From assembly GCA_036394995.1 (NCBI GenBank), contig DASWED010000111.1:72330-136329 (forward strand): 64,000 nucleotides of DNA, written 5' to 3'. This document shows, piece after piece, positions 20,327-35,046 of the stretch. Source of the DNA: Actinomycetota bacterium (GTDB lineage: Bacteria > Actinomycetota > UBA4738 > JACQTL01). Both the position numbers and the translations under genes were made by a program. Under the pieces are notes generated by a model that searched no databases, was not told the DNA's origin, and saw nothing but the letters and a program-made list of their open reading frames with translations. Positions within the stretch are counted from its first letter, which is position 1, and the number at the start of each line of letters is the position of its first letter.

Positions 20327-22180
20327 GTGTCGTCGAAGATTTCCGGGAGGAACGAGAGCTTGACCGCAGCCGACGGCTCGGCCATCCTCCGGGCGGGGCG
20401 GGCCGACGTCGCCAGGGCGCGCCTGCGCACCTGGCGCCGCCGGGTCATCCGCCTGGTGACCCTGTTCGTCCTGGTGGACGGGTACCTGTGGTACCGGTTC
20501 GCGACGAAGGACTGGCTGTCCCCGACGATCCCGTCGTGGGTGGGGGACTACCTCCCGGCGATCATCCTCATCGTGCTCCTCGGGACCAGCACGGTGGTGC
20601 CGTTCCTGCTGCTGTCGCGCTCCCCGCACATCCTCATCCGGCCCCAGGACATCGAGATCGGGCTGGACAAGCTGGTCGGCCTCGACCCCCAGGTCCAGGA
20701 GGTCCAGCACACGCTCGACGTCTTCCTGGGGTATGCCACGTTCCGCGACCAGCTCGGAGGGAACCCCCGCCGGGGCATCCTGTTCGAGGGGCCGCCGGGG
20801 ACCGGCAAGACGTACATGGCCAAGGCCCTGGCCAAGCAGGCGGGGGTGCCATTCCTGTTCGTGTCGTCGCCGGCGTTCCAGTCGCAGTTCTACGGCATGA
20901 CCGGCGTGCGGATCCGGGCCTTCTTCAAGGCCCTCCGCAAGGCCGCTCGCAGGGAAGGTGGGGCGGTCGGGTTCATCGAGGAGATCGACGCGATCGGCGC
21001 GAGCCGGGGCTCCGTGTCCATGGCCCCCGCGCCGCAGCAGCGGGGCGCGCTCAGCGTGTCCCGCTTCTCGAGCGGGAGCGGCGGGACCCTGAACGAGCTG
21101 CTGATCCAGATGCAGTCGTTCGACCAGGCGCCGTTCGGCAAGCGCGTGCGCAACCGGATCATCGAGTGGATCAACGGGTACCTGCCCGAGGGCAAGCGGA
21201 TCAGCACGAAAAAGCTCGAGTACTCGAACATCATGGTCATCGCCGCGACGAACCGGGCCGATGACCTCGACGTCGCGCTGCTCCGCCCGGGTCGGTTCGA
21301 CCGCCGGCTGTACTTCGACCTCCCGACGAAGCAGGGCCGCCGGGACCTCATCGACTTCTTCATGGACCGCAAGTCCCACCACCAGCAGCTCGACAACGAC
21401 GGTGTCCGCGACCGCCTGGCCCACGACACGCTGGGGTACACGCCGGTCATGATCGAGCACCTCTTCGACGAGGCCCTGCTGGTGGCCCTGCGGGGCGGAC
21501 GCCGGGCCATGAACCTGGAGGACGTGTACGAGGCCCGGATCACCGAGGAGGTCGGCCTCCGCCAGCCCGTCACCTACACGGACGAGGAGCGCCGGGCCGT
21601 GGCCACGCACGAGGCCGGCCACGCCACGGTGGCGTACTTCCTCGGGATCGGCCGGCGGCTGGAGGTCCTTTCGATCATCAAGCGGAGCGGGTCGCTGGGG
21701 ATGCTGGCGCACGGCGACACCGAGGAGCGGTTCACGCGATCCCGGAGCGAGCTGGACGCCACGGTGGCCATCGCGCTCGGCGGGCTGGTCTCGGAGGAGA
21801 CCTTCCTTGGCGAGAGCGGGACCGGCCCGGCGAACGACCTGGCCAAGGCCACGGAGGTGGCGGCGAGCATGGTCGGCGCGCTGGGCATGGCCGGCACACT
21901 GGTGTCGTACGAGGCCATGAACGACGGTCCGATCAACGCGTCGAACCTCGTGTCGAAGGTGCTCGGCGACCCCGAGGGAATGCGACGGGTGGAGGACATC
22001 CTGGACCGCCAGAAGGAGCGTGTCGCCGCCCTGCTCGAGGAGAACGCGGACGTGGTCTTCGCGCTCCGCGACGCCCTCATCGCCCGCGACGAGCTGGTCG
22101 GCGAGGCTATCGCCGCGGTCATCGACGGGGCCCTGGCCCGGCGCGCCGGACAGCCCGCCCCCGCGCCGTTCACCCGCTGA
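20327..22180 (+). CDS. divergent FtsH-like membrane AAA+ / M41 zinc metalloprotease
   Basis: Two TM helices with a short loop. Walker A GPPGTGKTYMAKALA, Walker B GFIEEIDAIG, LLRPGRFDRRLYF and zinc site HEAGHATVAY. Carries a ~35-aa insertion in the AAA module relative to canonical FtsH. Confidence 0.85.
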   Translation: MSSKISGRNESLTAADGSAILRAGRADVARARLRTWRRRVIRLVTLFVLVDGYLWYRFATKDWLSPTIPSWVGDYLPAIILIVLLGTSTVVPFLLLSRSPHILIRPQDIEIGLDKLVGLDPQVQEVQHTLDVFLGYATFRDQLGGNPRRGILFEGPPGTGKTYMAKALAKQAGVPFLFVSSPAFQSQFYGMTGVRIRAFFKALRKAARREGGAVGFIEEIDAIGASRGSVSMAPAPQQRGALSVSRFSSGSGGTLNELLIQMQSFDQAPFGKRVRNRIIEWINGYLPEGKRISTKKLEYSNIMVIAATNRADDLDVALLRPGRFDRRLYFDLPTKQGRRDLIDFFMDRKSHHQQLDNDGVRDRLAHDTLGYTPVMIEHLFDEALLVALRGGRRAMNLEDVYEARITEEVGLRQPVTYTDEERRAVATHEAGHATVAYFLGIGRRLEVLSIIKRSGSLGMLAHGDTEERFTRSRSELDATVAIALGGLVSEETFLGESGTGPANDLAKATEVAASMVGALGMAGTLVSYEAMNDGPINASNLVSKVLGDPEGMRRVEDILDRQKERVAALLEENADVVFALRDALIARDELVGEAIAAVIDGALARRAGQPAPAPFTR

Positions 22181-22193
22181 TCCCCTCGGGGCG

Positions 22194-25100
22194 CTACGCC
22201 GGGACCTGCGAGTCGAACGACCCCAGGTACTGATCCCGTTCGGCGGGAGTGAGCTCCCGGGTCACGCGGGCGCCGGCCAGCCCCACGAGGTCCCCGTACG
22301 GGAGGAACGACTCGACCGGCCACACCTTCGCCGTCCCGTCCTCGCTCGTCGTGACCAGCAGGCGGCCGTCGGGGCTGAACGTCGCGTCGTTCAGCCGACC
22401 GTTCTGGCCCCGGAGCACCGTGGACAGCGTTCCGCTCGGGACCTCCCACACCCGGGCGGTCCGGTCCCAGCTGGCGCTCACCAGGAGCCTCCCGTCCGAG
22501 CTGAACACGATCCCGGTCACGAAGTCGGTGTGGCCGCGGAGCGTGGAGAGGAGGTCGCCGTCGGGGACCGACCACAGCCGCACGGTCGGCCCGGATGCCG
22601 TCGCCACCACCGAGCCGTCCGGCGAGAATGCCCCGAGCACGTCGGTGAGGAACTCGTATCGCTTCCCGGCGGGCACCGGGTTGGCCATTCGGGCCACCTC
22701 GTCCCCCGACTCCGCGTCCAGCAGCGCCGCCATCTGGTCGCCCGTGGCCAGGACCAACCGGCCATCTGGGCTGAAGATCGCGCGCCCGTGCCCGAATGGC
22801 TGCCCCGGGACGTCGGTCCGGATGACGCGTTCCGGGAGGTCGCCCGAGCTCCCGTACAGCCGAACGATCTCGACGTCATGCCCCGGGACCTCGGTCACGA
22901 CCCGTCCCCGGGGCCCGGGCTGGGCGCTGATGAGATCGGGGAATTGCCCCGGCGCCCCCGGTCCCAGGGTGCGCAGCCGCCTTCCTGTGCCCGCGTCCCA
23001 CAGGGTGGCGGTGGCGTTCGAACCGGCCAGGAGCAGGTGTCCTTCGGCGTCGAACGCGATGTCGTTGAAGTAGCTGAAGAGCGGCCCCCCCGGCTCCCGG
23101 TGGAAGATCAGGCGGCCGGTGCGGAGGTCCCAGACGTCGGCGAACGCCTCCATGCGACCGAGGGCCGCGCCCACCAGATGCCCGTTCGGGCTCATCGCCA
23201 GGACCTGGGGCCCGACGTGGCAGCACAGGGTCCGTTCGAGATGACCGGTCAGCGCGTCCCATTCGCCGAGGCGCTGGCTTTCCTGGCCGGTACCGGTCAC
23301 GATGAGGCGTCCGTCCGGCGTGAACACTGCCGGGAACACCGGCCCGCCGCCGGACGACAGCGTGAGCCCTCCGGGCGGGGATTCCACGTCCCAGACGCGG
23401 GCCGTGCCGTCGCCGCTCCCGGTGACCACCGAGCGGCCGTCGGGGCCGAATCGCGCGTCGAAGACCCAGTCCGTGTCCCCCCGCAGGACGAAGATCTGCT
23501 TGCCCGTGGCAACCGACCAGACGCGCGCCGTGTGATCGACGCTCGCCGTCACGACCAGCCGGCCGTCGGGGCTGAACCGTGCGGACAGCACCGGCCCGCC
23601 GTGGCCGCGAAGCGTGGCGACCACCCGCCTCGCCCTCACGTCCCAGACGTGGGACAGCCCGTCGTCCTCGGCGGTGACCAGGAGCTTCCCGTCGCGGCTC
23701 CACTCGGCCTCCAGGGGAAAACTCCCGGATGCCCGCAGCGTCGCCAGCAGCTTCCCGTTGGCGACGCTCCACACGGTCACGGTCCGACCCGAGGTCACGG
23801 CGATCCGCTGCCCGTCGGGGCTGAACCGTGCACTGACGGCCGGGTTCGGTGGCAGGACGTTGAGGAGCCGCCCGGTCAGCGCGTCGAAGATTCCCACCCG
23901 GCCCTCAGAGCTCACCAGGATGTGCCGGGCGCCCGACACGAAGAACCCGGGCGACACGGCCACGAGCCGGCCGTCCGGGCTGAACGTCGCGAACTCCGCG
24001 TCGCGTCCTCCCGTGCCGAAGTCCGCGACCCGACGGCCTGACAGCGCATCCCAGACGCCGGACCCCGTGGCCAGCCGCCGGCCGTCGGGGCTGAAGGCGA
24101 ACTCGTACGGGGCGCTCGGCTGGGGGATCGTGGCGATGGCCGCTCCGGTAGCGGCGTCCCACACCCGGACGCCGCTTTCGAGCAGGCCGCCTGCCGTGGC
24201 CACGAGTTTCCCGTCGGGTGAGAACTCGACATCGTTGACCTGCTCGCCCTCGTTCGAAAGGGTTGCGATGACGTCCCCGGTGTTCGGATCCCACAGGCGG
24301 GCGGTGCCGTCCCAGCTCGCCGTGGCCACCTCGGTCCCGTCCGGGCTGAACGTGGCGCGGTCGACGACGTCCGTGTGGGCCCGAAGGACCGCCGACAGAC
24401 TCGACCCGAGCAGCGCCCGGCGGAGGGCGTCCTGGGCCTCCCGGGTGCCGGCGATCTCCCCCGCGGCCCTGGCCAGGAGGAGGGACAGCTCGGGATCGAC
24501 CTGGAGGAGATTGATGGCATCGGCGGCCAGCTCCCCCGACTTCGCCTCCGCGGCACGCTGCTCGGCCACGGCACGCTGGCGCTGCGCCTCCTTCCGCTGC
24601 CGATCGGCCTCCGCCTTCCTGCGCTCGGCGACGGCTTGCTGGTGCTCCGCATTCTTCTGGGCCGCCCGGGCCACCTCCTTCTCGTGGAGGGCCCGGCCCC
24701 GCTGCACGAGCGCGAACGCCGCGAGGATCACCGCCACCACGAGGGCCACGGACACCGCGCCCACGGTGACCCGCTGCCGGCGGGCCGACGCCCGGCGGCT
24801 GGCGTACACGTACTCGGTCTGGAGCTGGGTGGGCCGCGGAGACTTCTCCGCGGAAACGGCCAGGCTCCGCTCGGCGTCGTCCAGGTCGCTTCCCCGCAGG
24901 AGGAAGCTCCGGTCCCGGCGCCGCCGATCCCATTCCGTGGCCCGGACCTGCAGCCGGGTGTGCGTTCGGACCCACTCCAGGTCGGTCTCGAGGGCCTCGG
25001 TCAGCCGACGGAACGCCTCGTCGAAGTCGTCCTGCTCCCGGAACGAGATCCAGTTGTGGGCGGCCACGGCATCGGGAAGGGACTCCGGCGCGACCTCCTC

Positions 25101-25370
25101 CCGGAGCAGCGGGACCAGCCGGGTGTTCGTATCCAGGGCGACGCGGAGCTCCTCCGCGCACACCCTGGAGGCAACGGACGCCGGGCTGACGACGAACAGG
25201 AACCCGTCGGCCTCCACGATGGCCCGGCGGATCTCCTCCATCCACTGGGCGGTCGGCGGGATCCCCACCCAGTCCACCCAGGCGTCTCGCCCTCCCGCCT
25301 CCAGCGCCGCGTGGAGACGCCGGACGAACGGCTGGTCCTCTCGGGCGTAGGAGATGAAGACGTCCGGCAT
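22194..25370 (-). CDS. TIR domain - single TM - coiled coil - multi-blade WD40 repeat protein
   Basis: 1058 aa from the ATG at 25370. TIR: MPDVFISYAREDQPFVRRLHAAL...FLFVVSPASVASRVCAEEL. Stop-transfer SRRASARRQR plus TM VTVGAVSVALVVAVILAAFALV (24705..24770). A Lys/Arg/Glu/Ala coiled coil follows, then ~15 WD40 units (FSPDG...ASWDGTARLWD type). The upstream 77 codons of ORF 22194..25601 are Arg/Pro junk. Confidence 0.9.
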   Translation of the reverse strand: MPDVFISYAREDQPFVRRLHAALEAGGRDAWVDWVGIPPTAQWMEEIRRAIVEADGFLFVVSPASVASRVCAEELRVALDTNTRLVPLLREEVAPESLPDAVAAHNWISFREQDDFDEAFRRLTEALETDLEWVRTHTRLQVRATEWDRRRRDRSFLLRGSDLDDAERSLAVSAEKSPRPTQLQTEYVYASRRASARRQRVTVGAVSVALVVAVILAAFALVQRGRALHEKEVARAAQKNAEHQQAVAERRKAEADRQRKEAQRQRAVAEQRAAEAKSGELAADAINLLQVDPELSLLLARAAGEIAGTREAQDALRRALLGSSLSAVLRAHTDVVDRATFSPDGTEVATASWDGTARLWDPNTGDVIATLSNEGEQVNDVEFSPDGKLVATAGGLLESGVRVWDAATGAAIATIPQPSAPYEFAFSPDGRRLATGSGVWDALSGRRVADFGTGGRDAEFATFSPDGRLVAVSPGFFVSGARHILVSSEGRVGIFDALTGRLLNVLPPNPAVSARFSPDGQRIAVTSGRTVTVWSVANGKLLATLRASGSFPLEAEWSRDGKLLVTAEDDGLSHVWDVRARRVVATLRGHGGPVLSARFSPDGRLVVTASVDHTARVWSVATGKQIFVLRGDTDWVFDARFGPDGRSVVTGSGDGTARVWDVESPPGGLTLSSGGGPVFPAVFTPDGRLIVTGTGQESQRLGEWDALTGHLERTLCCHVGPQVLAMSPNGHLVGAALGRMEAFADVWDLRTGRLIFHREPGGPLFSYFNDIAFDAEGHLLLAGSNATATLWDAGTGRRLRTLGPGAPGQFPDLISAQPGPRGRVVTEVPGHDVEIVRLYGSSGDLPERVIRTDVPGQPFGHGRAIFSPDGRLVLATGDQMAALLDAESGDEVARMANPVPAGKRYEFLTDVLGAFSPDGSVVATASGPTVRLWSVPDGDLLSTLRGHTDFVTGIVFSSDGRLLVSASWDRTARVWEVPSGTLSTVLRGQNGRLNDATFSPDGRLLVTTSEDGTAKVWPVESFLPYGDLVGLAGARVTRELTPAERDQYLGSFDSQVPA

Positions 25371-25383
25371 GCTCCGCCCCGCT

Positions 25384-26316
25384 TCAGGTTCCCCGGGAGG
25401 CCCTCCACAGGGTGTGCTCCCGGGAGATGGCCTCCTCGGCGTGTTCGACGAACCGTGCCCACTCGCTCTCGGTCCGGGGCTCGTCGGCCAGAGCCTCGAT
25501 GTCGGAGATCTCCCTGGCCGTGACCGAGTACGCGGACGCCAGGGCCCCGTGGTCCTTCGTCTGGATCCAGGCCGCGATCGCCCCCGCCGCCGCCGCGGCA
25601 ACCCCCACGAAGTCGTACCGGGTGTGGGTCGTGAGACGGACGACCGCGGCGGCCACCCCGGCCACCTCGAAGGCCAGCATCGCCGCTCCCCACAGCTCCG
25701 CTCGCCGGGCGTTCCACCGGGCCTTCGTCACGTACCACACCCGCTGGTCCTCCAGCCGGCCCTCGACGTACGCGGTCCGGCGGTCCTCGAGGGACCGGGA
25801 CCGGAGCGCCTCCATCGCATCGGTGATCTGCTGCGATCGTTCGACCGACGGGATCAGTGTGACTTCGCGCAGGGGTCTGACGAGCTCGGACAGGCGGGCG
25901 ATGAGGAGCTTGCCCGCGGCCGGCCCCGGTTCGCCGTCGGCGTGGAATGGCGAACCGCCAACCGCGTAGCGCCAGGCCAGGGTCTTCGCCGACTCGGCGG
26001 CGGCACGGCCCTCGTACCACGTCCGATCGGGTTTGGTCCCCAGCAGGTGGGTCTTCAGGACGGCCGCCGAGAACAGCGCGATGACGGCCAGGACCTGGGG
26101 CCATTTGGGCGGAGTCGGCGTGGCCCCGGCCAGGGCCGCTCCACCCAGCAGCGCGAGCTGAGCGGCCGACGAGCGCACGAATCTACGCTGCGCGGTCGCG
26201 GAGGCCCGGTCGGCGGCCCTGAAGAGCTCCGGGAGGTCGAGGTCCCTCAACGTCGCGGCCGCACCCGGGCCGCGGTCCTCTCCGGCGGCCACTCCGCCCG
26301 CTCCCTCCCCCGTCAT
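25384..26316 (-). CDS. tandem 2TM DUF4231/SLATT-like membrane protein
   Basis: 310 aa from the internal ATG at 26316. Two TM hairpins, each followed by SLATT-type helices (WYEGRAAAESAKTLAWRY; RLEDQRVWYVTKARWNARRAE...YSVTAREISDIE...EWARFVEHAEEAISREHTLW). Ends 13 nt before the TIR gene start. The family call is by motif memory, not by HMM. Confidence 0.65.
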   Translation of the reverse strand: MTGEGAGGVAAGEDRGPGAAATLRDLDLPELFRAADRASATAQRRFVRSSAAQLALLGGAALAGATPTPPKWPQVLAVIALFSAAVLKTHLLGTKPDRTWYEGRAAAESAKTLAWRYAVGGSPFHADGEPGPAAGKLLIARLSELVRPLREVTLIPSVERSQQITDAMEALRSRSLEDRRTAYVEGRLEDQRVWYVTKARWNARRAELWGAAMLAFEVAGVAAAVVRLTTHTRYDFVGVAAAAAGAIAAWIQTKDHGALASAYSVTAREISDIEALADEPRTESEWARFVEHAEEAISREHTLWRASRGT

Positions 26317-26529
26317 GGAGTCGAAGCGTCGCCCCCACGTGGTGGCGGTGTCAATGCCGTCCCGCACGGGCGCTCGATCGGCAGGCGGAGAAGCCCGGGC
26401 CCCGGCCGTGTGGGTGGGCGTCCCGAGGGGACGGTGGCCAGCATCCGCGGCGTGCCCGTCAGGCGCCGTTCGGCGGTGAGTTCCGCCGGCTCGTAGACTG
26501 GGTGGAACCGATCGCAGGGAGAATCCGCC

Positions 26530-27726
26530 ATGGCCACATCCACCCGTTCCGTCATCGTCTCCGGGGCCCGCACGCCCATCGGGCGCTTCGCCGGAGGGTT
26601 CACCGACCTGGCCGCCGTGGACCTGGGGGGCGTGGCCATCCGTGAGGCCCTGTCCCGGTCCGGGGTGCCGGGAGAGACCGTGGACTACGTGATCATGGGC
26701 CAGGTCCTCCAGGCCGGGGCCGGCCAGATCACCGCCCGCCAGGCCGCGATCAAGGCCGGCGTGCCCAAGGAGGTCCCGGCCATCACCATCAACAAGGTGT
26801 GCCTGTCGGGCCTGAACGCGATCGCGCTGGCGGACCAGCTCATCCGGGCCGGGGAGATCTCCGTTGCCGTGGCCGGGGGGATGGAATCCATGACGAACGC
26901 CCCCTACGTCCTGCCCTCCGCCCGGTTCGGAGCCCGCATGGGCAACACCGAGATGGTGGACTCCATGGTCTACGACGGGCTGTGGTCGACCTTCACCGAC
27001 CAGCACATGGGGCAGTCCTCCGACGAGGTGAACGCGGAGCTGAAGATCTCCCGCGACGACCAGGACGCCTGGGCCGCCCGTTCCCACCAGCGCGCCGCGG
27101 AGGCATGGGCCTCGGGGCGGTTCGCCGAGGAGGTCGTGCCCGTCGAGGTCCCCCAGCGCAAGGGGGACCCCGTCGTGGTGGAACGGGACGAAGGGATCCG
27201 GGAGGGGACCTCAGCGGAGTCACTGGCCAGGCTGAAGCCGGCGTTCGTCCCCGACGGGACCATCACCGCCGGGAACGCCTCCCAGATCTCCGACGGGGCC
27301 GCCGCGGTCGTGGTGATGTCCGCGGCCAAGGCCGAGGAGCTCGGCCTGAAGCCCCTGGCCGAGATCGTGGCCCACGGGATGTGCGCGGAGCGCTACGCCT
27401 GGCTGCACACCGTCCCCGCCATCGCGATGCAGAACGCCCTGAAGAAGGCCGGCAAGGACGTCCACGACCTGGGCGTGGTGGAGATCAACGAGGCCTTTGC
27501 CTCCGTGGCCCTGAACGCCACCCGGATGCTCGGTGTGGACGAGGCCATCGTGAACCCGAACGGCGGGGCGGTGGCCCTCGGTCACCCCATCGGCGCGAGC
27601 GGAGCGAGGCTCGTGTTCACCCTGGCGAACGAGATGCGCCGGCGCGGCGTGGAGTTCGGCGGCGCGGCGCTGTGCGGAGGCGGCGGCCAGGGCGACGCCC
27701 TCATCATCAGGAACCCGGCGGCCTGA
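26530..27726 (+). CDS. acetyl-CoA C-acetyltransferase (thiolase II)
   Basis: 398 aa. INKVCLSGLNAIA (active-site Cys), NASQISDGAAAVV, NPNGGAVALGHPIGASGAR and LCGGGGQG. Confidence 0.93.
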   Translation: MATSTRSVIVSGARTPIGRFAGGFTDLAAVDLGGVAIREALSRSGVPGETVDYVIMGQVLQAGAGQITARQAAIKAGVPKEVPAITINKVCLSGLNAIALADQLIRAGEISVAVAGGMESMTNAPYVLPSARFGARMGNTEMVDSMVYDGLWSTFTDQHMGQSSDEVNAELKISRDDQDAWAARSHQRAAEAWASGRFAEEVVPVEVPQRKGDPVVVERDEGIREGTSAESLARLKPAFVPDGTITAGNASQISDGAAAVVVMSAAKAEELGLKPLAEIVAHGMCAERYAWLHTVPAIAMQNALKKAGKDVHDLGVVEINEAFASVALNATRMLGVDEAIVNPNGGAVALGHPIGASGARLVFTLANEMRRRGVEFGGAALCGGGGQGDALIIRNPAA

Positions 27727-31584: not shown

Positions 31585-31671
31585 CGGTTCCTCATCACCC
31601 GCCGGGACTTCCTGAAGTACTCCGGCGCCGCCACGGTCGTGGTGGGCGCCGGACCGGCTCGAGCCCTGGCA
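31585..31671 (+). other. twin-arginine (Tat) signal peptide coding segment, in frame with giant ORF 1
   Basis: Translates to RFLITRRDFLKYSGAATVVVGAGPARALA with AxA followed by GSE. This matches the consensus S/T-R-R-x-F-L-K, an h-region and an AxA cleavage site. It lies upstream of the first canonical in-frame start (GTG at 31639). Confidence 0.7.
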
Positions 31672-34600
31672 GGCTCCGAGGCCCGGTTCGGCCGGGCCTC
31701 CAACCCCTTCCCCACCTTCAACCTGGTCCGGGCCCGGGACATGCTGGCCCTGTCGTTCGAGGTCCACAACCTCGAGCTGAAGAGGAAGGGCCAGGCCGGC
31801 CCGGGGGACACCCAGACGGCCCGTCTCGTCCGCACCGTTCCCGACCGCCCCGCGTACATCGTGGTGGTGTTCGAGCCCCAGCACCTGGCAGAGCACGCGT
31901 TCTTCGAGGTGAACGACCCGATGATCCCGGGCGATCCCGGCCCCGAGACCCTGATGTCGCCCCCCGTGCCCTCCAGCCTGGCCGGCCCCAGCCGGCTGGC
32001 GTTCAGGGTCCCTGCGAACGTGGCCGCGGTTCCGTTCGAACTCGACACGCTGCTGACGTGGGGCGACTGGGAGCGCAGCCTGGCCCCCCTGGCCCAGGAC
32101 CCCCCTCGCAGTGGGGCCGGCTTCCGGGACCCCACGGTCTTCACCACGGACACCGCGCTCGAGGTGCCGTGGCGGCTGTACCTCTCGCCCGGCCCCAGCT
32201 CGCTGTGGTTCCACTCGCACGACCCGGTCACCCACACCGACCCCAAGGACTCCCGTCCGCGGACCGAGCTGTGGCACTCGAGGATGGGCGTCCACATCGG
32301 CTCCGCGTCCACCGAAGGCGGCCGCATCGCCAACCCCCACAACGAGGAGGGCGGGCCGCTCCGCGCCATCTGGACGCCGGGGTTCTCCACGGACCAGGAC
32401 CCCCCCGACCCGAACGGGCTCGGCCCGAACCCGCCCGAGCGGACGTCGCTGAAGCCGAACGACCGGTGGCAGATCGTCCGGCTCACCGCCGAACGCGACC
32501 TCCAGCTGTTCAACCAGGACACCGCCTACGTCCCGCAGCCGGTGGACTCCGACCGGTTCGCGCTCTCGGCCCTCGGGGTGTTCATGGACACCAAGGGGGC
32601 CTGGCCGAAGGTCACCACCCAGGGTGGGGTCGACCACCCGTGGGTCTCGGACCTCGTCAAGTGGGATCACCGGGCCGCGATTGGCCGAGACAACTACGTC
32701 CGGGTCATCCACTCCGGGTACCTGCTCCCGTTCGGGCACGCCGCCGTGGTGGTCACGGTCACCGAACGGAAGATGCAGCCGGCGGAGTCGGGGCCGCTGG
32801 CCGGCCAGCTGGGCGGCTACCTCCGCCAGCACGCGTTCATCATCCCCCGCAGGTTCACGCTGGGCTACCCGGCGGCGTCGAACCAGCCGAACGGCGCCCG
32901 GGACTTCCCGTTCACGAACATCAAGCTGAAGACGCTGGTCACGCCGAACCTCGAGCCCTACGACGGCGCGACCCCCGTCACCCAGACGCAGGTGCTGAAG
33001 ACGAACAGCCAGCCGTACGGCTCCACGGCCTTCTGGCCCATGATCCCCAGCTCCGGCGGCACACCCGTCGACTTCGAGTTCGTGTACGAGGCCACGGACC
33101 GGGATGGGAACTCCATCCAGTTCACCGCGCCCCAGATCTTCGTCTCGTCGACGCTCGCCGACGACAAGACGAAACAGGACGACATCGAACAGATCATCCA
33201 CGAGTACGGCAAGGCCACGCCGAGCAGCCGACACACCCGCTCCTTCAACGGCCAGAAGGTGGCGTTCGCCACGTTCCCCGGCGGTGAGGAGGGGGCCACC
33301 GCCTACGAGGTCGACACCATGACCTTCAGCGCGGCGCCCCCCGTGAACACGAACGCGGAGCCCACCGACATCCCGAGGTTCTTCCCGAACCTGCTGAAGG
33401 CCGACGTCCGGCTCCAGGCCGCCGAGCGGATCGCCGGGAAGTCCCTGGCCAAGAAGCCGACCATCGTCTACCACGACACCTACGTCGCGAACGGCCAGAA
33501 CAACTCGAAGGTCTTCGCCATGCTGGTGGACTCCTCCACCGTGAAGCCCCCCCAGCCGGGCAAGGCGAAGACCGCGCCGACGCCCGAACCGCTCGACATG
33601 GTGCTGGGGGCCGACACCTCCGGCGGTGTGCTCACGCCGAACATGGCCATCACCGGCCTGTCGGCGGCGCTGGGGCCGATGGGCGGCGACCTGTCGAGCG
33701 GCCTCCCGTCCGACTTCGATCCGCTGGAGTTCTTCGGGAACCCGGCGTCGCTGCCCAAGATCCTGGGCGGCCTGGACCTCTGGGACATCATCCACGCGGT
33801 CACCGGGTTCTCCGACCTGGACAAGATCCCCAAGACCATCGAGAGCCCCCTCCCGGACCAGATCGTGGTCTCGCTCGAATGGAATCCCGAGCCGGTGCAC
33901 GATCCCCTGAACGTGTTCGTCCCGGGAGGGAACTGCTCGATTTCCATCTCCGCGGTGTCCACGACGGAGATCAACGACAACGGCACCCCGGGAGAGTCCA
34001 CGTTCGAGATCACGGGCATCATCGAGGACTTCCAGGCCCAGCTGGTGGGCGACGCCTTCAAGGCCATCGTGATCACGTTCGACCACCTGAGTTTCTCCTC
34101 GGTCAGCGGCCAGAAGCCGAACGTGGACCCGGCCATCACCGACGTCACGTTCGTGGGGGTCCTGGAGTTCGTGCAGAAGCTCCAGGAATTCCTGTCCTCG
34201 ATCGGGTTCGGGAACGGCGGGCTGTCACCGGGGCCGGCCACGCGGAACGGCGCGCTCGTGTCACGCAAGGCCCAGGCGGCCGACGCGCCCGAGGACGACG
34301 GCTCGGGCCCGTCGATCACCGTCGACGAGACCGGGATCAACGCCTCGCTGGGAGTGAGCCTCCCGGCCATCCAGGTCGGCGTGTTCAGCCTCGAGGGGAT
34401 CTCGTTCGGGGCCAAGCTGAACATCCCGTTCGTGGACGGGCCGGCCCGGGTCCGGTTCAACTTCGCCTCGCAGGACGCGCCGTTCCTGATCACGGTCTCG
34501 CTGTTCGGCGGGGGCGGTTCCGTGGAGGTGGGGCTGGGGCTCGACGGGTTCGAGTCGCTCACGCTGACCCTGGAGTTCGGGGCCAAGATCGCGATCGACC

Positions 34601-35046
34601 TCGGTGTGGCCTCCGGCGGCATCAGCGTGATGGGCGGCATCTACATCAACATCGAGGACAACAACGGGAACCAGGACACCACCCTGACGGGCTTCGTGAA
34701 GATGACCGGGGAGCTCGACGTCCTGGGGCTGATCACCGCGTCGGTGGAGTTCGACCTCTCGCTCACGTACGAGGACTCCGGCGGCGTGAAGCGGTGCTAC
34801 GGGCAGGCCGAGATCACGGTCGAGGTCAGCGTGGCGTTCTTCTCGGCCAGCGTGACCCTGGGGCCGGTCGAGGAGGAGTTCGCCGGCGGGGGAGGGAGCG
34901 CCCCCGCCCCGCTCCCCGGGGCGAGCTCGAACGGATCCCGGGCCCGGGCAGCCTCCGTCGACGACAACCACATCACGTTCGCGCAGCTGATGAGCCAGGA
35001 CGACTGGGCCGTCTACGCGGCGTCCTACGCCCCCGGAGCATTCTGA
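31639..35046 (+). CDS. giant hypothetical protein 1 (at least 1135 aa; probably Tat-exported, true N-terminus upstream near 31577)
   Basis: Uninterrupted 3.4-kb ORF with protein-like composition throughout. I recognised no catalytic or family motif. The C-terminal ~190 aa is Gly-rich with alternating-polarity beta-strand patterns. The conservative start is given; see the findings for the Tat-motif extension. Confidence 0.85.
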   Translation: MVGAGPARALAGSEARFGRASNPFPTFNLVRARDMLALSFEVHNLELKRKGQAGPGDTQTARLVRTVPDRPAYIVVVFEPQHLAEHAFFEVNDPMIPGDPGPETLMSPPVPSSLAGPSRLAFRVPANVAAVPFELDTLLTWGDWERSLAPLAQDPPRSGAGFRDPTVFTTDTALEVPWRLYLSPGPSSLWFHSHDPVTHTDPKDSRPRTELWHSRMGVHIGSASTEGGRIANPHNEEGGPLRAIWTPGFSTDQDPPDPNGLGPNPPERTSLKPNDRWQIVRLTAERDLQLFNQDTAYVPQPVDSDRFALSALGVFMDTKGAWPKVTTQGGVDHPWVSDLVKWDHRAAIGRDNYVRVIHSGYLLPFGHAAVVVTVTERKMQPAESGPLAGQLGGYLRQHAFIIPRRFTLGYPAASNQPNGARDFPFTNIKLKTLVTPNLEPYDGATPVTQTQVLKTNSQPYGSTAFWPMIPSSGGTPVDFEFVYEATDRDGNSIQFTAPQIFVSSTLADDKTKQDDIEQIIHEYGKATPSSRHTRSFNGQKVAFATFPGGEEGATAYEVDTMTFSAAPPVNTNAEPTDIPRFFPNLLKADVRLQAAERIAGKSLAKKPTIVYHDTYVANGQNNSKVFAMLVDSSTVKPPQPGKAKTAPTPEPLDMVLGADTSGGVLTPNMAITGLSAALGPMGGDLSSGLPSDFDPLEFFGNPASLPKILGGLDLWDIIHAVTGFSDLDKIPKTIESPLPDQIVVSLEWNPEPVHDPLNVFVPGGNCSISISAVSTTEINDNGTPGESTFEITGIIEDFQAQLVGDAFKAIVITFDHLSFSSVSGQKPNVDPAITDVTFVGVLEFVQKLQEFLSSIGFGNGGLSPGPATRNGALVSRKAQAADAPEDDGSGPSITVDETGINASLGVSLPAIQVGVFSLEGISFGAKLNIPFVDGPARVRFNFASQDAPFLITVSLFGGGGSVEVGLGLDGFESLTLTLEFGAKIAIDLGVASGGISVMGGIYINIEDNNGNQDTTLTGFVKMTGELDVLGLITASVEFDLSLTYEDSGGVKRCYGQAEITVEVSVAFFSASVTLGPVEEEFAGGGGSAPAPLPGASSNGSRARAASVDDNHITFAQLMSQDDWAVYAASYAPGAF

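Follow-up and report, generated by a model that had tools for sequence, protein, structure and literature searches.

Gene pair and genomic context

The window analyzed here is a stretch of 64,000 nucleotides from an Actinomycetota bacterium (GCA_036394995.1, contig DASWED010000111.1, positions 72,330-136,329 of the forward strand), numbered so that position 1 is the window start. It carries two adjacent genes on the reverse strand, the first encoding a 310-aa SLATT protein and the second a 1058-aa TIR-TM-WD40 protein (Table 1). The SLATT gene stops with TGA at 25386-25384, followed directly by the spacer agcggggcggagc and the ATG of the TIR gene at 25370. A spacer of this length leaves no room for a terminator, and a site scan found no terminator-like or sigma-70-like sites in 21900-26700. 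The two genes thus have co-transcription geometry, as an earlier note on this DNA had claimed from the same coordinates and from a gap in which it saw no hairpin. The identical locus is present on four JGI soil-metagenome contigs, whose independent gene calls gave the same 310-aa and 1058-aa models. The pair is presumed to have its promoter region in the divergent intergenic stretch that separates the SLATT start from a thiolase gene, where the failure to find a sigma-70 consensus is uninformative because the genome has a G+C content of 72%. No recognizable defense island was found around the pair; the neighbors are metabolic genes and PADLOC gave only generic AAA similarity.

Table 1. Features of the gene pair and its flank (window coordinates)
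Feature	Position	Strand	Basis or remark
SLATT CDS, 310 aa	25384..26316	-	First gene of pair; translation, Pfam/NCBIfam, AF2
SLATT_3 module, aa 29-180, first 2TM hairpin and cytoplasmic helices	25777..26232	-	Pfam PF18184, full model
SLATT_1 module, aa 183-304, second 2TM hairpin and cytoplasmic helices	25405..25770	-	Pfam PF18181, full model
Intergenic spacer, 13 nt, purine-rich	25371..25383	-	Sequence read
TIR-TM-WD40 CDS, 1058 aa	22194..25370	-	Second gene of pair; translation, Pfam, full-length homologs
TIR domain, aa 4-123	25002..25361	-	Pfam TIR_2 9e-28
Glu74 codon, predicted catalytic Glu of TIR NADase site	25149..25151	-	Invariance and SARM1/TIR-1 alignment
Juxtamembrane helical region, aa 129-200	24771..24986	-	Conservation, AF2 helices 131-149 and 160-175
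Single TM helix, aa 201-222, probable signal-anchor	24705..24770	-	Hydropathy, flank charges, AF2
Charged helical stalk, aa 223-287	24510..24704	-	Alignment A3, AF2
WD40 region, about aa 331-1035 (propeller matches about aa 340-1040)	22266..24380	-	Pfam WD40 9.2e-78, blade count
Divergent intergenic region, 213 nt, SLATT start to thiolase gene	26317..26529	.	Sequence read
Thiolase gene	26530-27726	+	Divergent neighbor of SLATT gene

The tandem SLATT protein

The product of the first gene is a tandem SLATT protein (SLATT_3 plus SLATT_1) with four TM helices in two hairpins, which bears out the earlier view of it as SLATT/DUF4231-like and makes it a putative membrane effector of the pore type. 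It matches Pfam SLATT_3 (7.6e-41), SLATT_1 (1.3e-33) and DUF4231 (2e-15) and the NCBIfam models of SLATT_3 (4.5e-47) and SLATT_1 (1.9e-34), with Pfam and NCBIfam scores that far exceed the curated cut-offs. The AlphaFold2 (AF2) model is all-helical (pLDDT 87.6, pTM 0.83), and its long helices span the four hydrophobic segments; they are H30-65, H72-94, H96-119 and H131-149 in the SLATT_3 module and H176-230, H236-275 and H283-309 in the SLATT_1 module. There is no solved SLATT structure with which to compare it. From the alignment and the model, the conserved SLATT residues lie mostly in the cytoplasmic helices and not in the TM segments, and those that are invariant in the SLATT_3 module (W100, R104, E108, S109, K111, W115, and R116) are on the helix that follows TM2.

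The TIR-TM-WD40 protein

The N-terminal TIR domain carries the conserved Glu that had been picked out earlier in the sequence SRVCAEEL. This residue, E74, is invariant together with S7 and Y8 in 28 SLATT-adjacent TIR domains (alignment A2), and is also invariant in alignments A4 and A5. Its counterpart in the TIR-1/SARM1 PDB chains is the Glu of ‘WVHKEL’, which in human SARM1 is the catalytic E642. A profile of the 28 SLATT-adjacent TIRs matches SARM1, TIR-1, Cat1, and AbTIR in the PDB, and the best Foldseek matches of the AF2 model of the TIR are the SPARTA TIR-APAZ and the SARM1 TIR (E about 1e-6). From profile, fold and Glu conservation, we infer that the TIR is of the NAD-cleaving type.

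Between the TIR and the membrane lies a region that has no significant match to a Pfam family (aa 129-200) and contains the motif ‘TDLEWVRTHTRL..RAxEW..DRSFLLRGSDLDxAE..PRPTxLQxxY..SRRA..QR’, with H137, W147, L158, G160, and L163 invariant in alignment A4. The TIR and this juxtamembrane region together are 50-52% identical to those of the full-length homologs L086 (37% identity overall, E 4e-171) and L087 (32%), both of which adjoin SLATT homologs, and a protein of 1032 aa (P0322) shares 64% identity with the window protein across aa 1-300. The TIR-juxtamembrane-TM module defines a large family, with 4033 clusters (50% identity) at E≤1e-30, in which WD40, CHASE2, dCache-like, fn3, and GDPD domains are fused after the TM. 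Many relatives have from three to seven tandem TIR domains in one chain.

The 1058-aa protein has one strongly hydrophobic segment (aa 203-221, Kyte-Doolittle 2.82 over 19 aa), and in the AF2 model one continuous helix (aa 182-287) runs through it and on into the stalk, where the pLDDT is >90. The coiled coil of about 50 residues that had been claimed after the TM is present as a charged helical stalk, but roughly 40 aa of it are an insertion specific to the window protein that is missing from L086 and L087 (alignment A3). Beyond the stalk, Pfam matches WD40 in nine stretches and many other beta-propeller families, and 13 ‘FSPDG’-type blade anchors plus two or three degenerate ones put the number of blades at about 15-16, which would suffice for two propellers and is close to the earlier count of about 15.

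WD40 propellers are usually cytoplasmic. Of 27 proteins of this family, 26 have more K+R residues in the N-terminal than in the C-terminal flank of the TM (4.7 versus 2.2 on average); in the window protein alone the bias is weak (5 versus 4), and the segment after its TM is highly charged. The same juxtamembrane motif precedes the TM, with the same juxtamembrane-TM junction, in relatives that carry CHASE2 (3.7e-53) or dCache-like domains after it, and SLATT-adjacent paralogs have fn3, GDPD, or a Thr/Pro linker and a Cys-rich domain at this position. The flanking charges and the post-TM domains of the relatives indicate that the TIR is probably inside and the WD40 region outside of the membrane, so that the proposal of a membrane-spanning segment with a cytoplasmic TIR is supported computationally.

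Recurrence of the TIR-SLATT pairing

The SLATT-side census comprised 80 genomic loci, each carrying a homolog of the tandem SLATT gene, drawn from the Actinomycetota, Acidobacteriota, Chloroflexota, and Proteobacteria. A TIR gene lies within 700 nt in 37 of them and within 5 kb in a further 23, which amounts to 60 of 80, or 60 of the 72 loci that have enough flank. The TIR gene may be downstream, upstream, convergent, or divergent relative to the SLATT gene. All of the closest SLATT homologs (52-60% identity) have TIR neighbors, two of which are full-length TIR-TM-WD40 homologs, and tandem SLATT homologs also pair with soluble TIRs of 130-175 aa that have no TM. The pairing is hence more than chance, and the adjacency noted earlier is not random. 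One close relative locus adjoins a phage-type integrase, which suggests mobility.

These data bear on the possibility that the two proteins work by direct contact, such that the 4-TM SLATT protein is gated within a stoichiometric complex by the TM helix or juxtamembrane region of its partner, with the TIR as a scaffold and no diffusible messenger. The TIRs of metazoan Toll-like receptors are scaffolds, both gene products here are membrane proteins, the juxtamembrane region is conserved as strongly as the TIR, and a gap of 13 nt points to translational coupling with matched amounts of the two products. However, the catalytic Glu is invariant in 28/28 SLATT-adjacent TIRs, homologous tandem SLATTs pair with the short soluble TIRs, and the convergent, divergent, and spaced gene arrangements speak against obligatory co-translational assembly. 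We regard such a complex as very unlikely.

The reverse census gave a different view. Among 33 informative TIR-TM-WD40 loci, a SLATT-type neighbor is found in only 11, SLATT or TPR-S in 15, and neither in 18. Seen from this side, SLATT is an optional partner. Close TIR-TM-WD40 relatives adjoin interchangeable partners, namely SLATT_1-long, SLOG(LSDAT)-SLATT fusions, and TPR-S proteins, which are predicted to be nucleotide-responsive, with SLOG-SLATT and TPR-S domains predicted to bind ADPR derivatives. Some neighbors are of the peptidoglycan/cell-wall type (C39_2+SH3_3, PG_binding_1).

Relationship to type VII Thoeris

A TIR+SLATT gene neighborhood was noted earlier by Aravind’s group, and the claim that no system of this composition has been characterized is out of date. 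Type VII Thoeris is a validated TIR plus SLATT system (ThsB and ThsH) in which canonical cADPR is the signal and toxicity is SLATT-dependent (bioRxiv 10.64898/2025.12.03.692087, December 2025). The validated systems differ from the window pair in having a ThsH that is a single SLATT_1 of 150 aa and a ThsB that is a short soluble TIR, rather than a tandem SLATT and a TM-WD40 TIR. The window SLATT_1 module and ThsH belong to one Pfam family, and ThsH-type genes in two of our loci (L081 and L082) encode proteins of 150-151 aa with PF18181 and PF14015. In L082, a close relative of the validated B. licheniformis system (98% TIR identity), the SLATT_1 gene overlaps the TIR gene and the order, SLATT then TIR, is that of the window.

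The TIRs directly upstream of three tandem SLATT homologs (L008, L002, and L003) match the type VII ThsB of Bacillus sp. PvP124 (E 1e-47 to 1e-49), which is listed in Table S1 of the preprint and scored non-defensive in its Table S2 (bioRxiv 10.64898/2025.12.03.692087). The window TIR itself has no match to the six type VII ThsB TIRs, its only match among nine Table S1 TIRs being a type III TIR (7.8e-7), and a direct comparison of the window SLATT with a ThsH-type protein gave marginal similarity, with a BLASTP E of 0.008 and an hhalign probability of 30%. The pair looks like a receptor-style variant of type VII Thoeris.

With only 15 of 33 loci having SLATT or TPR-S, the TIR may also act alone as a stand-alone NADase. 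In its strict form, the TIR-TM-WD40 protein would be self-contained and deplete NAD+ in the manner of SARM1 or SPARTA, and the SLATT protein would be independent or accessory and not a signal receiver. Its closest structure and profile matches are indeed these NAD+-depleting TIRs, more than half of the reverse-census loci have neither partner, and the tandem TIRs of many relatives could be built-in catalytic oligomers. Against this stand the TIR neighbors of 60 of 80 SLATT loci in shuffled order, the pairing of the same SLATT family with short soluble TIRs that match type VII ThsB, the predicted ADPR-derivative binding of the alternative neighbors, and the response of SLATT to cADPR in validated type VII systems (bioRxiv 10.64898/2025.12.03.692087). 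A self-contained TIR is, in our view, unlikely.

Proposed mechanism

We consider it probable that the pair is a two-gene, type VII-like Thoeris module for cell suicide or growth arrest in a soil actinomycete, in which a TIR-made signal acts on SLATT. The second gene would encode a ThsB-analogous, type-II single-pass membrane protein with its TIR and juxtamembrane helices facing the cytoplasm, one long helix that crosses the membrane and extends as the charged stalk, and the two propellers outside as the sensor. We propose that a cue from the cell envelope clusters or re-orients the WD40 ectodomains and that this change is passed along the trans-membrane helix, whereupon the cytoplasmic TIRs would assemble into an active form that cleaves or cyclizes NAD+ via Glu74. 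The NAD-derived product, which by analogy may be canonical cADPR or an isomer, would bind to the conserved Arg/Trp/Tyr-rich cytoplasmic helices of the SLATT protein, and the 4-TM SLATT_3-SLATT_1 protein would then oligomerize or open, breaching the membrane potential.

The role of such a module may be anti-phage, in some other conflict, or in programmed death. A receptor for envelope stress or development is also conceivable, in which an outside cue leads to a TIR-made nucleotide and the reversible modulation of a SLATT ion channel. The locus lies amid metabolic genes, relatives bear the environmental sensor domains CHASE2 and dCache, some neighbors are of the cell-wall type, and Aravind’s group ties such systems to multicellular bacteria (PMC7159879). 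Nevertheless, all TIR+SLATT pairs experimentally tested so far are anti-phage, SLATT is also an effector in the CBASS and DRT defense systems, and the integrase beside one close relative suggests mobility; to a non-immune role we give the least credence. What is new in the proposed suicide or growth-arrest module is the receptor-like TIR partner of SLATT.

Results

The gene pair and its surroundings

The two genes lie on the same strand in a window whose G+C content is about 72% (see table), the stop codon of the tandem SLATT gene being separated from the ATG of the TIR-TM-WD40 gene by a 13-nt spacer, agcggggcggagc, and a scan of positions 21900-26700 found neither a terminator-like nor a sigma-70-like site. 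At least four JGI soil metagenomes yielded, in independent assemblies, an identical locus with the same pair of gene models; the 310-aa product is listed in one database source as 'DUF4231 domain-containing protein [Actinomycetota bacterium]'. Besides the FtsH-like and thiolase genes, the neighbors of the pair are BNR, acyl-CoA dehydrogenase, DUF1028, glyoxalase, and APH genes. Defense-like genes are absent among them, at what is a single locus, enrichment across the family being a separate matter, and PADLOC applied to ten flanking proteins matched nothing but the FtsH-like gene, through a generic AAA resemblance. This gene, whose product has one clear hydrophobic segment only, at the N-terminus, was rejected as a third component on the basis of that generic match and of the lack of a homolog in all 160 related loci, and a connection with the pair is improbable. 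No TPR-S, C39-SH3, or SLOG-SLATT partner of the kind present in related cassettes was found within the window. Since the neighbors are not defense-like and no related locus has a counterpart of the FtsH-like gene, we take the unit to consist of two genes only. Two other long ORFs of the window, of 1135 and 502 aa, have a strong coding-type GC3 (0.95) and no Pfam match, and the 1135-aa product has neither a PADLOC match nor a predicted TM segment.

Coordinates of features in the window and in related genomic or metagenome loci (L numbers)
Sequence	Feature	Position	Strand	Product (aa)	Remark
Window	Tandem SLATT gene	25384-26316	-	310	Translated; stop codon TGA
Window	TIR-TM-WD40 gene	22194-25370	-	1058	Translated; ATG 13 nt after SLATT stop
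Window	Charged post-TM helix of the TIR-TM-WD40 protein	24510-24704	-		Contains insertion of ~40 aa
Window	FtsH-like AAA + Peptidase_M41 gene	20327-22180	+	617	Converges on TIR gene, 14-nt gap
Window	Thiolase gene	26530-27726			Divergent from SLATT gene
Window	Long ORF without Pfam match	31639-35046	+	1135
Window	Long ORF without Pfam match	13889-15397	-	502
L006	Triad example	2124-3407; 3635-6007	-
L039	Triad example	8417-10720; 10812-12023	+
L084	SLATT, ThsB_TIR, and TIR_2-TPR cluster	273-5288
L085	SLATT, ThsB_TIR, and TIR_2-TPR cluster	208-5223
L061	Four TIR genes around one tandem SLATT	1378-13264			Actinomycete MAG
L135	Cassette example	4482-5855	+
L156	Cassette example	10291-12714	+
L129	Cassette example	1562-3043	+
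L095	LSDAT_prok-SLATT_3-SLATT_1 fusion	1632-3500	+	623

The tandem SLATT protein

The earlier note had recognized the 310-aa protein as SLATT/DUF4231-like, and the curated models agree. Pfam places SLATT_3 at aa 29-180 (7.6e-41, 140.4 bits) and SLATT_1 at aa 183-304 (1.3e-33, 116.1 bits), each with a cut-off of 26.3, and DUF4231 scores 57.5 bits (cut-off 24.7), while the NCBIfam models give 160.2 bits for SLATT_3 (cut-off 45) and 118.5 bits for SLATT_1 (cut-off 41). All of these gathering scores are exceeded and the protein is a member of the SLATT superfamily; the PADLOC RTasSLATT model also matches it, weakly (E 0.0047). The AlphaFold2 model, built from 25 homologs, is all-helical (pLDDT 87.6, pTM 0.83) and contains the two TM hairpins that had been described from the sequence, formed by helices 30-65 and 72-94 and by helices 176-230 and 236-275, each followed by soluble helices (96-119, 131-149, and 283-309). 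Hydropathy peaks at residues 75-93, 208-226, and 235-251 coincide with this picture, the first TM being weaker and Ala/Gly-rich. A Foldseek search of the PDB with the model returned chance helical-bundle matches only (best E 0.09); no solved structure resembles it, and none of a SLATT protein was found.

Of 33 residues invariant in the SLATT family alignment, most are on the membrane-adjacent helices rather than within the TM segments, among them W100, R104, E108, K111, W115, R116, R172, R179, Y183, R187, W194, Y195, Y263, E269, W286, E294, R299, E300, and W304, and we infer that this Trp/Tyr/Arg-rich set would suit a nucleotide-binding face. A rival reading of the same protein is that SLATT is gated directly within the membrane. 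In the mechanism that we favor, the tandem SLATT would instead be addressed from the cytoplasm by a nucleotide.

The TIR-TM-WD40 protein

The reported TIR domain with its conserved Glu and the single TM segment were both recovered: TIR_2 matches aa 4-123 (Pfam, 9e-28) and the only strongly hydrophobic segment is at aa 201-222. WD40/propeller models cover approximately aa 340-1040, where 13 clear and two to three degenerate blade anchors give about 15-16 blades, in line with the original count of some 15. The helical region between the TIR and the TM matches no Pfam family but is conserved as highly as the TIR itself, identity to homologs being 50-52% over aa 1-330. In the AlphaFold2 model, which covers aa 1-330 only and was built from database homologs (pLDDT 91.8), a TIR fold is followed by two juxtamembrane helices and by a continuous helix (aa 182-287) that runs through the TM. 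The charged coiled coil that had been described after the TM is modeled as a helix, and about 40 aa of it, EKEVARAAQKNAEHQQAVAERRKAEADRQRKEAQRQRAVAEQRAAEAK, are an insertion peculiar to the window protein and not present in the full-length TIR-TM-WD40 homologs of loci L086 and L087; the insertion would extend the predicted stalk that joins the propellers to the membrane.

Foldseek places the modeled TIR nearest to the SPARTA TIR-APAZ and SARM1 TIR domains (E ~1e-6, target-normalized TM-score ~0.7). By phmmer, the 200 aa of the TIR and juxtamembrane region found nothing in the PDB at E≤0.01, and a profile of 28 SLATT-partner TIRs was needed to reach PDB TIR chains. S7, Y8, and E74 are the only residues invariant among these 28 SLATT-adjacent TIR domains, and E74 is also invariant in two further alignments, A4 and A5. 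In the profile alignment, E74 coincides with the 'WVHKEL' Glu of the TIR-1/SARM1 chains, the catalytic residue. From sequence and model, the window TIR has a TIR fold and the conserved, predicted catalytic Glu of NADase and signal-generating TIRs.

Pairing of SLATT and TIR genes

One genome per species was scanned with the SLATT alignment, giving 317 relatives, and at the best 80 of these loci TIR genes were sought using an iterated TIR profile together with ThsB-type queries. A TIR gene lies within 700 nt of the SLATT gene at 37 of the 80 best loci and beyond 700 nt but within 5 kb at another 23; none was found near SLATT at 20, eight of which are on truncated contigs. The TIR gene may be downstream, upstream, convergent, or divergent, and the loci span several phyla, including Actinomycetota, Acidobacteriota, Chloroflexota, and Proteobacteria. 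The closest SLATT homologs (52-60% identity) had TIR neighbors in four of four look-ups. Two loci contain full-length TIR-TM-WD40 homologs next to close SLATT homologs, in L086 as a convergent gene whose product has 37% identity to the 1058-aa protein (E 4e-171) and in L087 as a TIR-WD40 gene that precedes the SLATT gene and overlaps it by 4 nt. The pairing on which the earlier note relied therefore recurs in relatives, and adjacency by chance is excluded. We conclude that the two window genes very probably form one functional TIR-SLATT conflict module.

Other arrangements were seen among the related loci. The tandem SLATT of Sphaerisporangium, Streptosporangium, Microbispora, Actinomadura, and related genera belongs to a conserved triad whose other two products are a radical-SAM protein (~770-820 aa) and a TIR_2 protein (~400-430 aa), exemplified by L006 and L039, with similar triads in L007, L011, L023, L025, L041, L049, L050, L058, L059, L067, L072, L073, L076, and L078. 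At L084 and L085 a close homolog of the window SLATT (52% identity) is flanked by a gene for a ThsB_TIR protein of 137-147 aa and by a convergent gene for an 824-aa TIR_2-TPR protein, and the phage-type integrase directly alongside suggests that this cluster is mobile. The L061 locus has TIR genes encoding 347, 997, 1102, and 704 aa.

A family of TIR-juxtamembrane-TM proteins

In actinomycetes, most SLATT-adjacent TIR proteins consist of a TIR, ~100 aa, one TM, and a variable C-terminal domain, which can be WD40, GDPD, fn3, unknown, or a Thr/Pro-rich linker that leads to a Cys-rich domain. K+R residues are more numerous on the N-terminal than on the C-terminal flank of the TM in 26 of 27 such proteins (means 4.7 and 2.2). 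Homologs retrieved with the N-terminal 330 aa of the window protein were mostly short fragments, and an exhaustive search of representatives was more informative, aa 1-300 yielding 4033 clusters (50% identity) at E≤1e-30. Many of the top matches have three to seven tandem TIR-plus-juxtamembrane units, then a 'PxPTxLQxxYIxxSR' junction and a TM, after which come CHASE2 (3.7e-53), dCache/PDC-like (near the cut-off), or WD40 repeats. Such arrays of three to seven TIRs with one TM occur in P0303, P0343, P0347, P0358, P0330, and other proteins, and P0303 has seven TIR_2 domains in a single polypeptide of 2023 aa.

CHASE2 and Cache belong to the classic sensor domains of the extracytoplasmic side (Zhulin et al. 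2003, as cited in PMC8195603). [quoted passage not shown] The charge bias of the window protein itself is weak, with five K+R on the N-terminal flank of the TM and four on the other, so its topology is graded as likely and not as proven: by comparison with its relatives, its WD40 region is likely extracytoplasmic. M. tuberculosis PknD, an actinobacterial receptor kinase with an extracellular beta-propeller, is a precedent for a propeller outside the membrane. Neighboring SH3_3 or C39_2-SH3_3 proteins were considered as a sign of an extracellular site and dropped, as the C39-SH3 protein has neither a signal peptide nor a TM.

A reverse census, in which metagenome contigs were scanned with the N-terminal 330 aa, recovered at least 484 relatives, nearly every one of which has a TM ~200 aa past the TIR start, and partners were counted over the 33 loci informative on both sides. 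A SLATT-type neighbor is present in 11 of the 33, either a 'SLATT_1-long' protein of 458-482 aa encoded immediately downstream of the TIR gene or an LSDAT(SLOG)-SLATT_3-SLATT_1 fusion, a TPR-S protein in 10, and an upstream C39_2+SH3_3 protein in 6. The exchangeable partners SLATT, SLOG, and TPR-S, whose domains are predicted to read ADPR-type ligands, are compatible with a signal-plus-effector design. SLATT or TPR-S is found in 15 of the 33 loci and neither in 18, and in view of these orphan loci the TIR receptor may in some cases work by itself or with unlinked partners. The rival explanation to which they lend weight is a stand-alone NADase, in which the TIR receptor may act without SLATT, for example by NAD+ depletion; the 15 linked loci sit beside them, and for the window pair we retain the TIR-SLATT module.

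Close TIR-TM-WD40 relatives also recur in a four-gene cassette (L106, L116, L135, L152, and L156) with the order Peptidase_C39_2+SH3_3, TIR-TM-WD40, a SLATT_1 protein of 458-482 aa whose N-terminal half is unannotated, and a TPR-S protein of ~800 aa. In L095, and also in L099, a TIR-TM-TPR gene lies beside a gene for the 623-aa fusion of LSDAT_prok (SLOG, 6.7e-51), SLATT_3, and SLATT_1, which combines a predicted ADPR-type ligand sensor and a tandem SLATT in one protein.

Discussion

Aravind's group had earlier noted the TIR-SLATT neighborhood (PMC9503650; PMC7159879), with SLATT genes beside nucleotide-generating effectors such as TIR and PNPase (PMC7159879; PMC8195603), and in December 2025 the TIR plus SLATT combination was validated as type VII Thoeris, in which ThsB makes canonical cADPR on infection and ThsH is toxic (bioRxiv 10.64898/2025.12.03.692087). 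The view that no characterized system has such a composition is overtaken by that work, and because the composition is already known the pair is not categorically new. Both are two-gene TIR and SLATT systems, and the window shares with the B. licheniformis-type loci L081 and L082 the SLATT to TIR order and the near-overlap; as in type VII, a TIR gene with the predicted catalytic Glu is adjacent to a SLATT gene, in the window at a distance of 13 nt. In addition, the ThsB of Bacillus sp. PvP124 (Table S1), which gave no defense in the assay of the preprint (bioRxiv 10.64898/2025.12.03.692087), matches TIR genes in L008, L002, and L003 (E 1e-47 to 1e-49) that are immediately upstream of tandem-SLATT homologs, indicating that the SLATT family of the window is used by a ThsB-type TIR of the type VII set.

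The proteins differ, however. ThsH of the B. licheniformis-type system, where the genes are in the order SLATT to TIR and overlap, is a protein of 150 aa with a single SLATT_1, in contrast to the 310-aa SLATT_3 plus SLATT_1 effector of the window, and while both match Pfam SLATT_1, their direct similarity is marginal (BLASTP E 0.008 over 23 aa, hhalign probability 30%). The ThsB-type proteins P0121 and P0122 are short soluble TIRs (~134 aa, PF08937), whereas the window TIR is a TIR_2 domain at the N-terminus of a membrane protein. By phmmer, none of six type VII ThsB TIR domains (Table S1) matched the window protein, and of the nine Table S1 TIRs compared the only one that did is a type III TIR (7.8e-7). 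Both proteins differ in architecture, and the window TIR falls outside the 'ThsB cluster' of short stand-alone TIRs. We consider that the window pair shares the composition of type VII, as judged from domain content, and probably its logic. The preprint selected type VII by a defense score above 0.4, whereas the window locus is outside any recognizable defense island, and a rival reading to be weighed at this point is envelope signaling with a non-immune role. The reading we prefer remains a conflict module.

Reportedly, SLATT was defined through comparative genomics by Burroughs et al. in 2015, with SLATT effectors in CBASS/reverse-transcriptase-type systems. The window effector resembles these in its 2TM SLATT module and flanking cytoplasmic helices, and killing through disruption of the membrane after a nucleotide-type signal has been predicted or shown for them (DRT10 preprint; PADLOC RTasSLATT). 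Their partner is a CD-NTase/SMODS, SLOG, or reverse transcriptase and not a TIR, and they lack the two hairpins in one chain of the tandem SLATT_3-SLATT_1. Metazoan Toll-like/IL-1 receptors are likewise single-pass proteins in which the ectodomain is rich in repeats and the TIR cytoplasmic, as is predicted for the window protein, and ligand-induced TIR association would be a further likeness. In the window protein the polarity is reversed (N-terminal TIR, predicted type II anchor), the predicted ectodomain is WD40 and not LRR or Ig, and the NADase Glu is retained in the TIR, which probably produces or uses up a nucleotide in place of adaptor recruitment. The resemblance is one of layout and not orthology. 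With CHASE2/dCache transmembrane receptors the family probably shares a cytoplasmic output, one TM, and an extracytoplasmic sensor, but its output is a TIR, often in three to seven tandem copies in relatives, and not a kinase, cyclase, or GGDEF domain.

Caspase-TM-CHASE2 'apoptotic' fusions, as described by Kaur et al. 2021 (PMC8195603) and Kaur et al. 2020 (PMC7159879), also join a death-type effector via TM helices to an extracellular sensor and are enriched in actinomycetes and cyanobacteria; the systems described there center on NTPases (GAP1, vWA-MoxR, STAND), unlike the window pair, which has no NTPase. The searched text of these two papers contained no description of a TIR-juxtamembrane-TM family, and in the literature searched we found none of a TIR as receptor output domain, of membrane-anchored bacterial TIR receptors, of multi-TIR receptor arrays, or of TIR-CHASE2 fusions or TIR-TM-WD40 proteins. 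What is new, as read from the sequences, is the sensor architecture and a family-wide pattern of a predicted TIR cytoplasmic output with swappable ectodomains and effectors.

We now put forward a mechanism that we hold to be reasonably probable as a whole, its functional claims drawing on sequence, structure prediction, and gene context. We propose that an envelope cue would reach the WD40 ectodomain and be relayed inward by the long TM helix and juxtamembrane module, so that the TIRs would associate and act on NAD+ via Glu74. A cADPR-type product would then bind the tandem SLATT on its cytoplasmic side, and the SLATT would permeabilize the membrane and lead to arrest or death. That the messenger is canonical cADPR itself, by analogy with type VII, is a tentative suggestion. 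Equally provisional is the wider reading that the TIR may be an unrecognized output domain of bacterial transmembrane receptors, a family of at least 4000 clusters in which WD40, CHASE2, dCache, fn3, or GDPD sensors, one TM, a conserved juxtamembrane module, and TIRs that are single or in sets of three to seven might convert a cue outside into an NAD-derived messenger for SLATT pores or SLOG/TPR-S effectors.

If this is true, bacteria would have an outside-in 'Toll-like' pathway of which the window pair is the minimal two-gene form, and a clean two-gene example of the swappable TIR-receptor pattern. With this pair, the recently defined type VII Thoeris would also gain an actinomycete form whose sensor is built differently. 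In the literature surveyed, the TIR proteins of described Thoeris systems are short and soluble and respond once phage has infected. If the sensor is outside, some bacteria could start NAD-derived immune or death signaling from their surface, before an invader enters or even if none does, by the same logic as animal Toll-like receptors except that the TIR would be enzymatic. A large modular family with exchangeable ectodomains and predicted nucleotide-responsive effectors offers a test bed for three questions: which ligands the ectodomains bind, how the TM helix activates the TIR, and whether the tandem SLATT reads cADPR.
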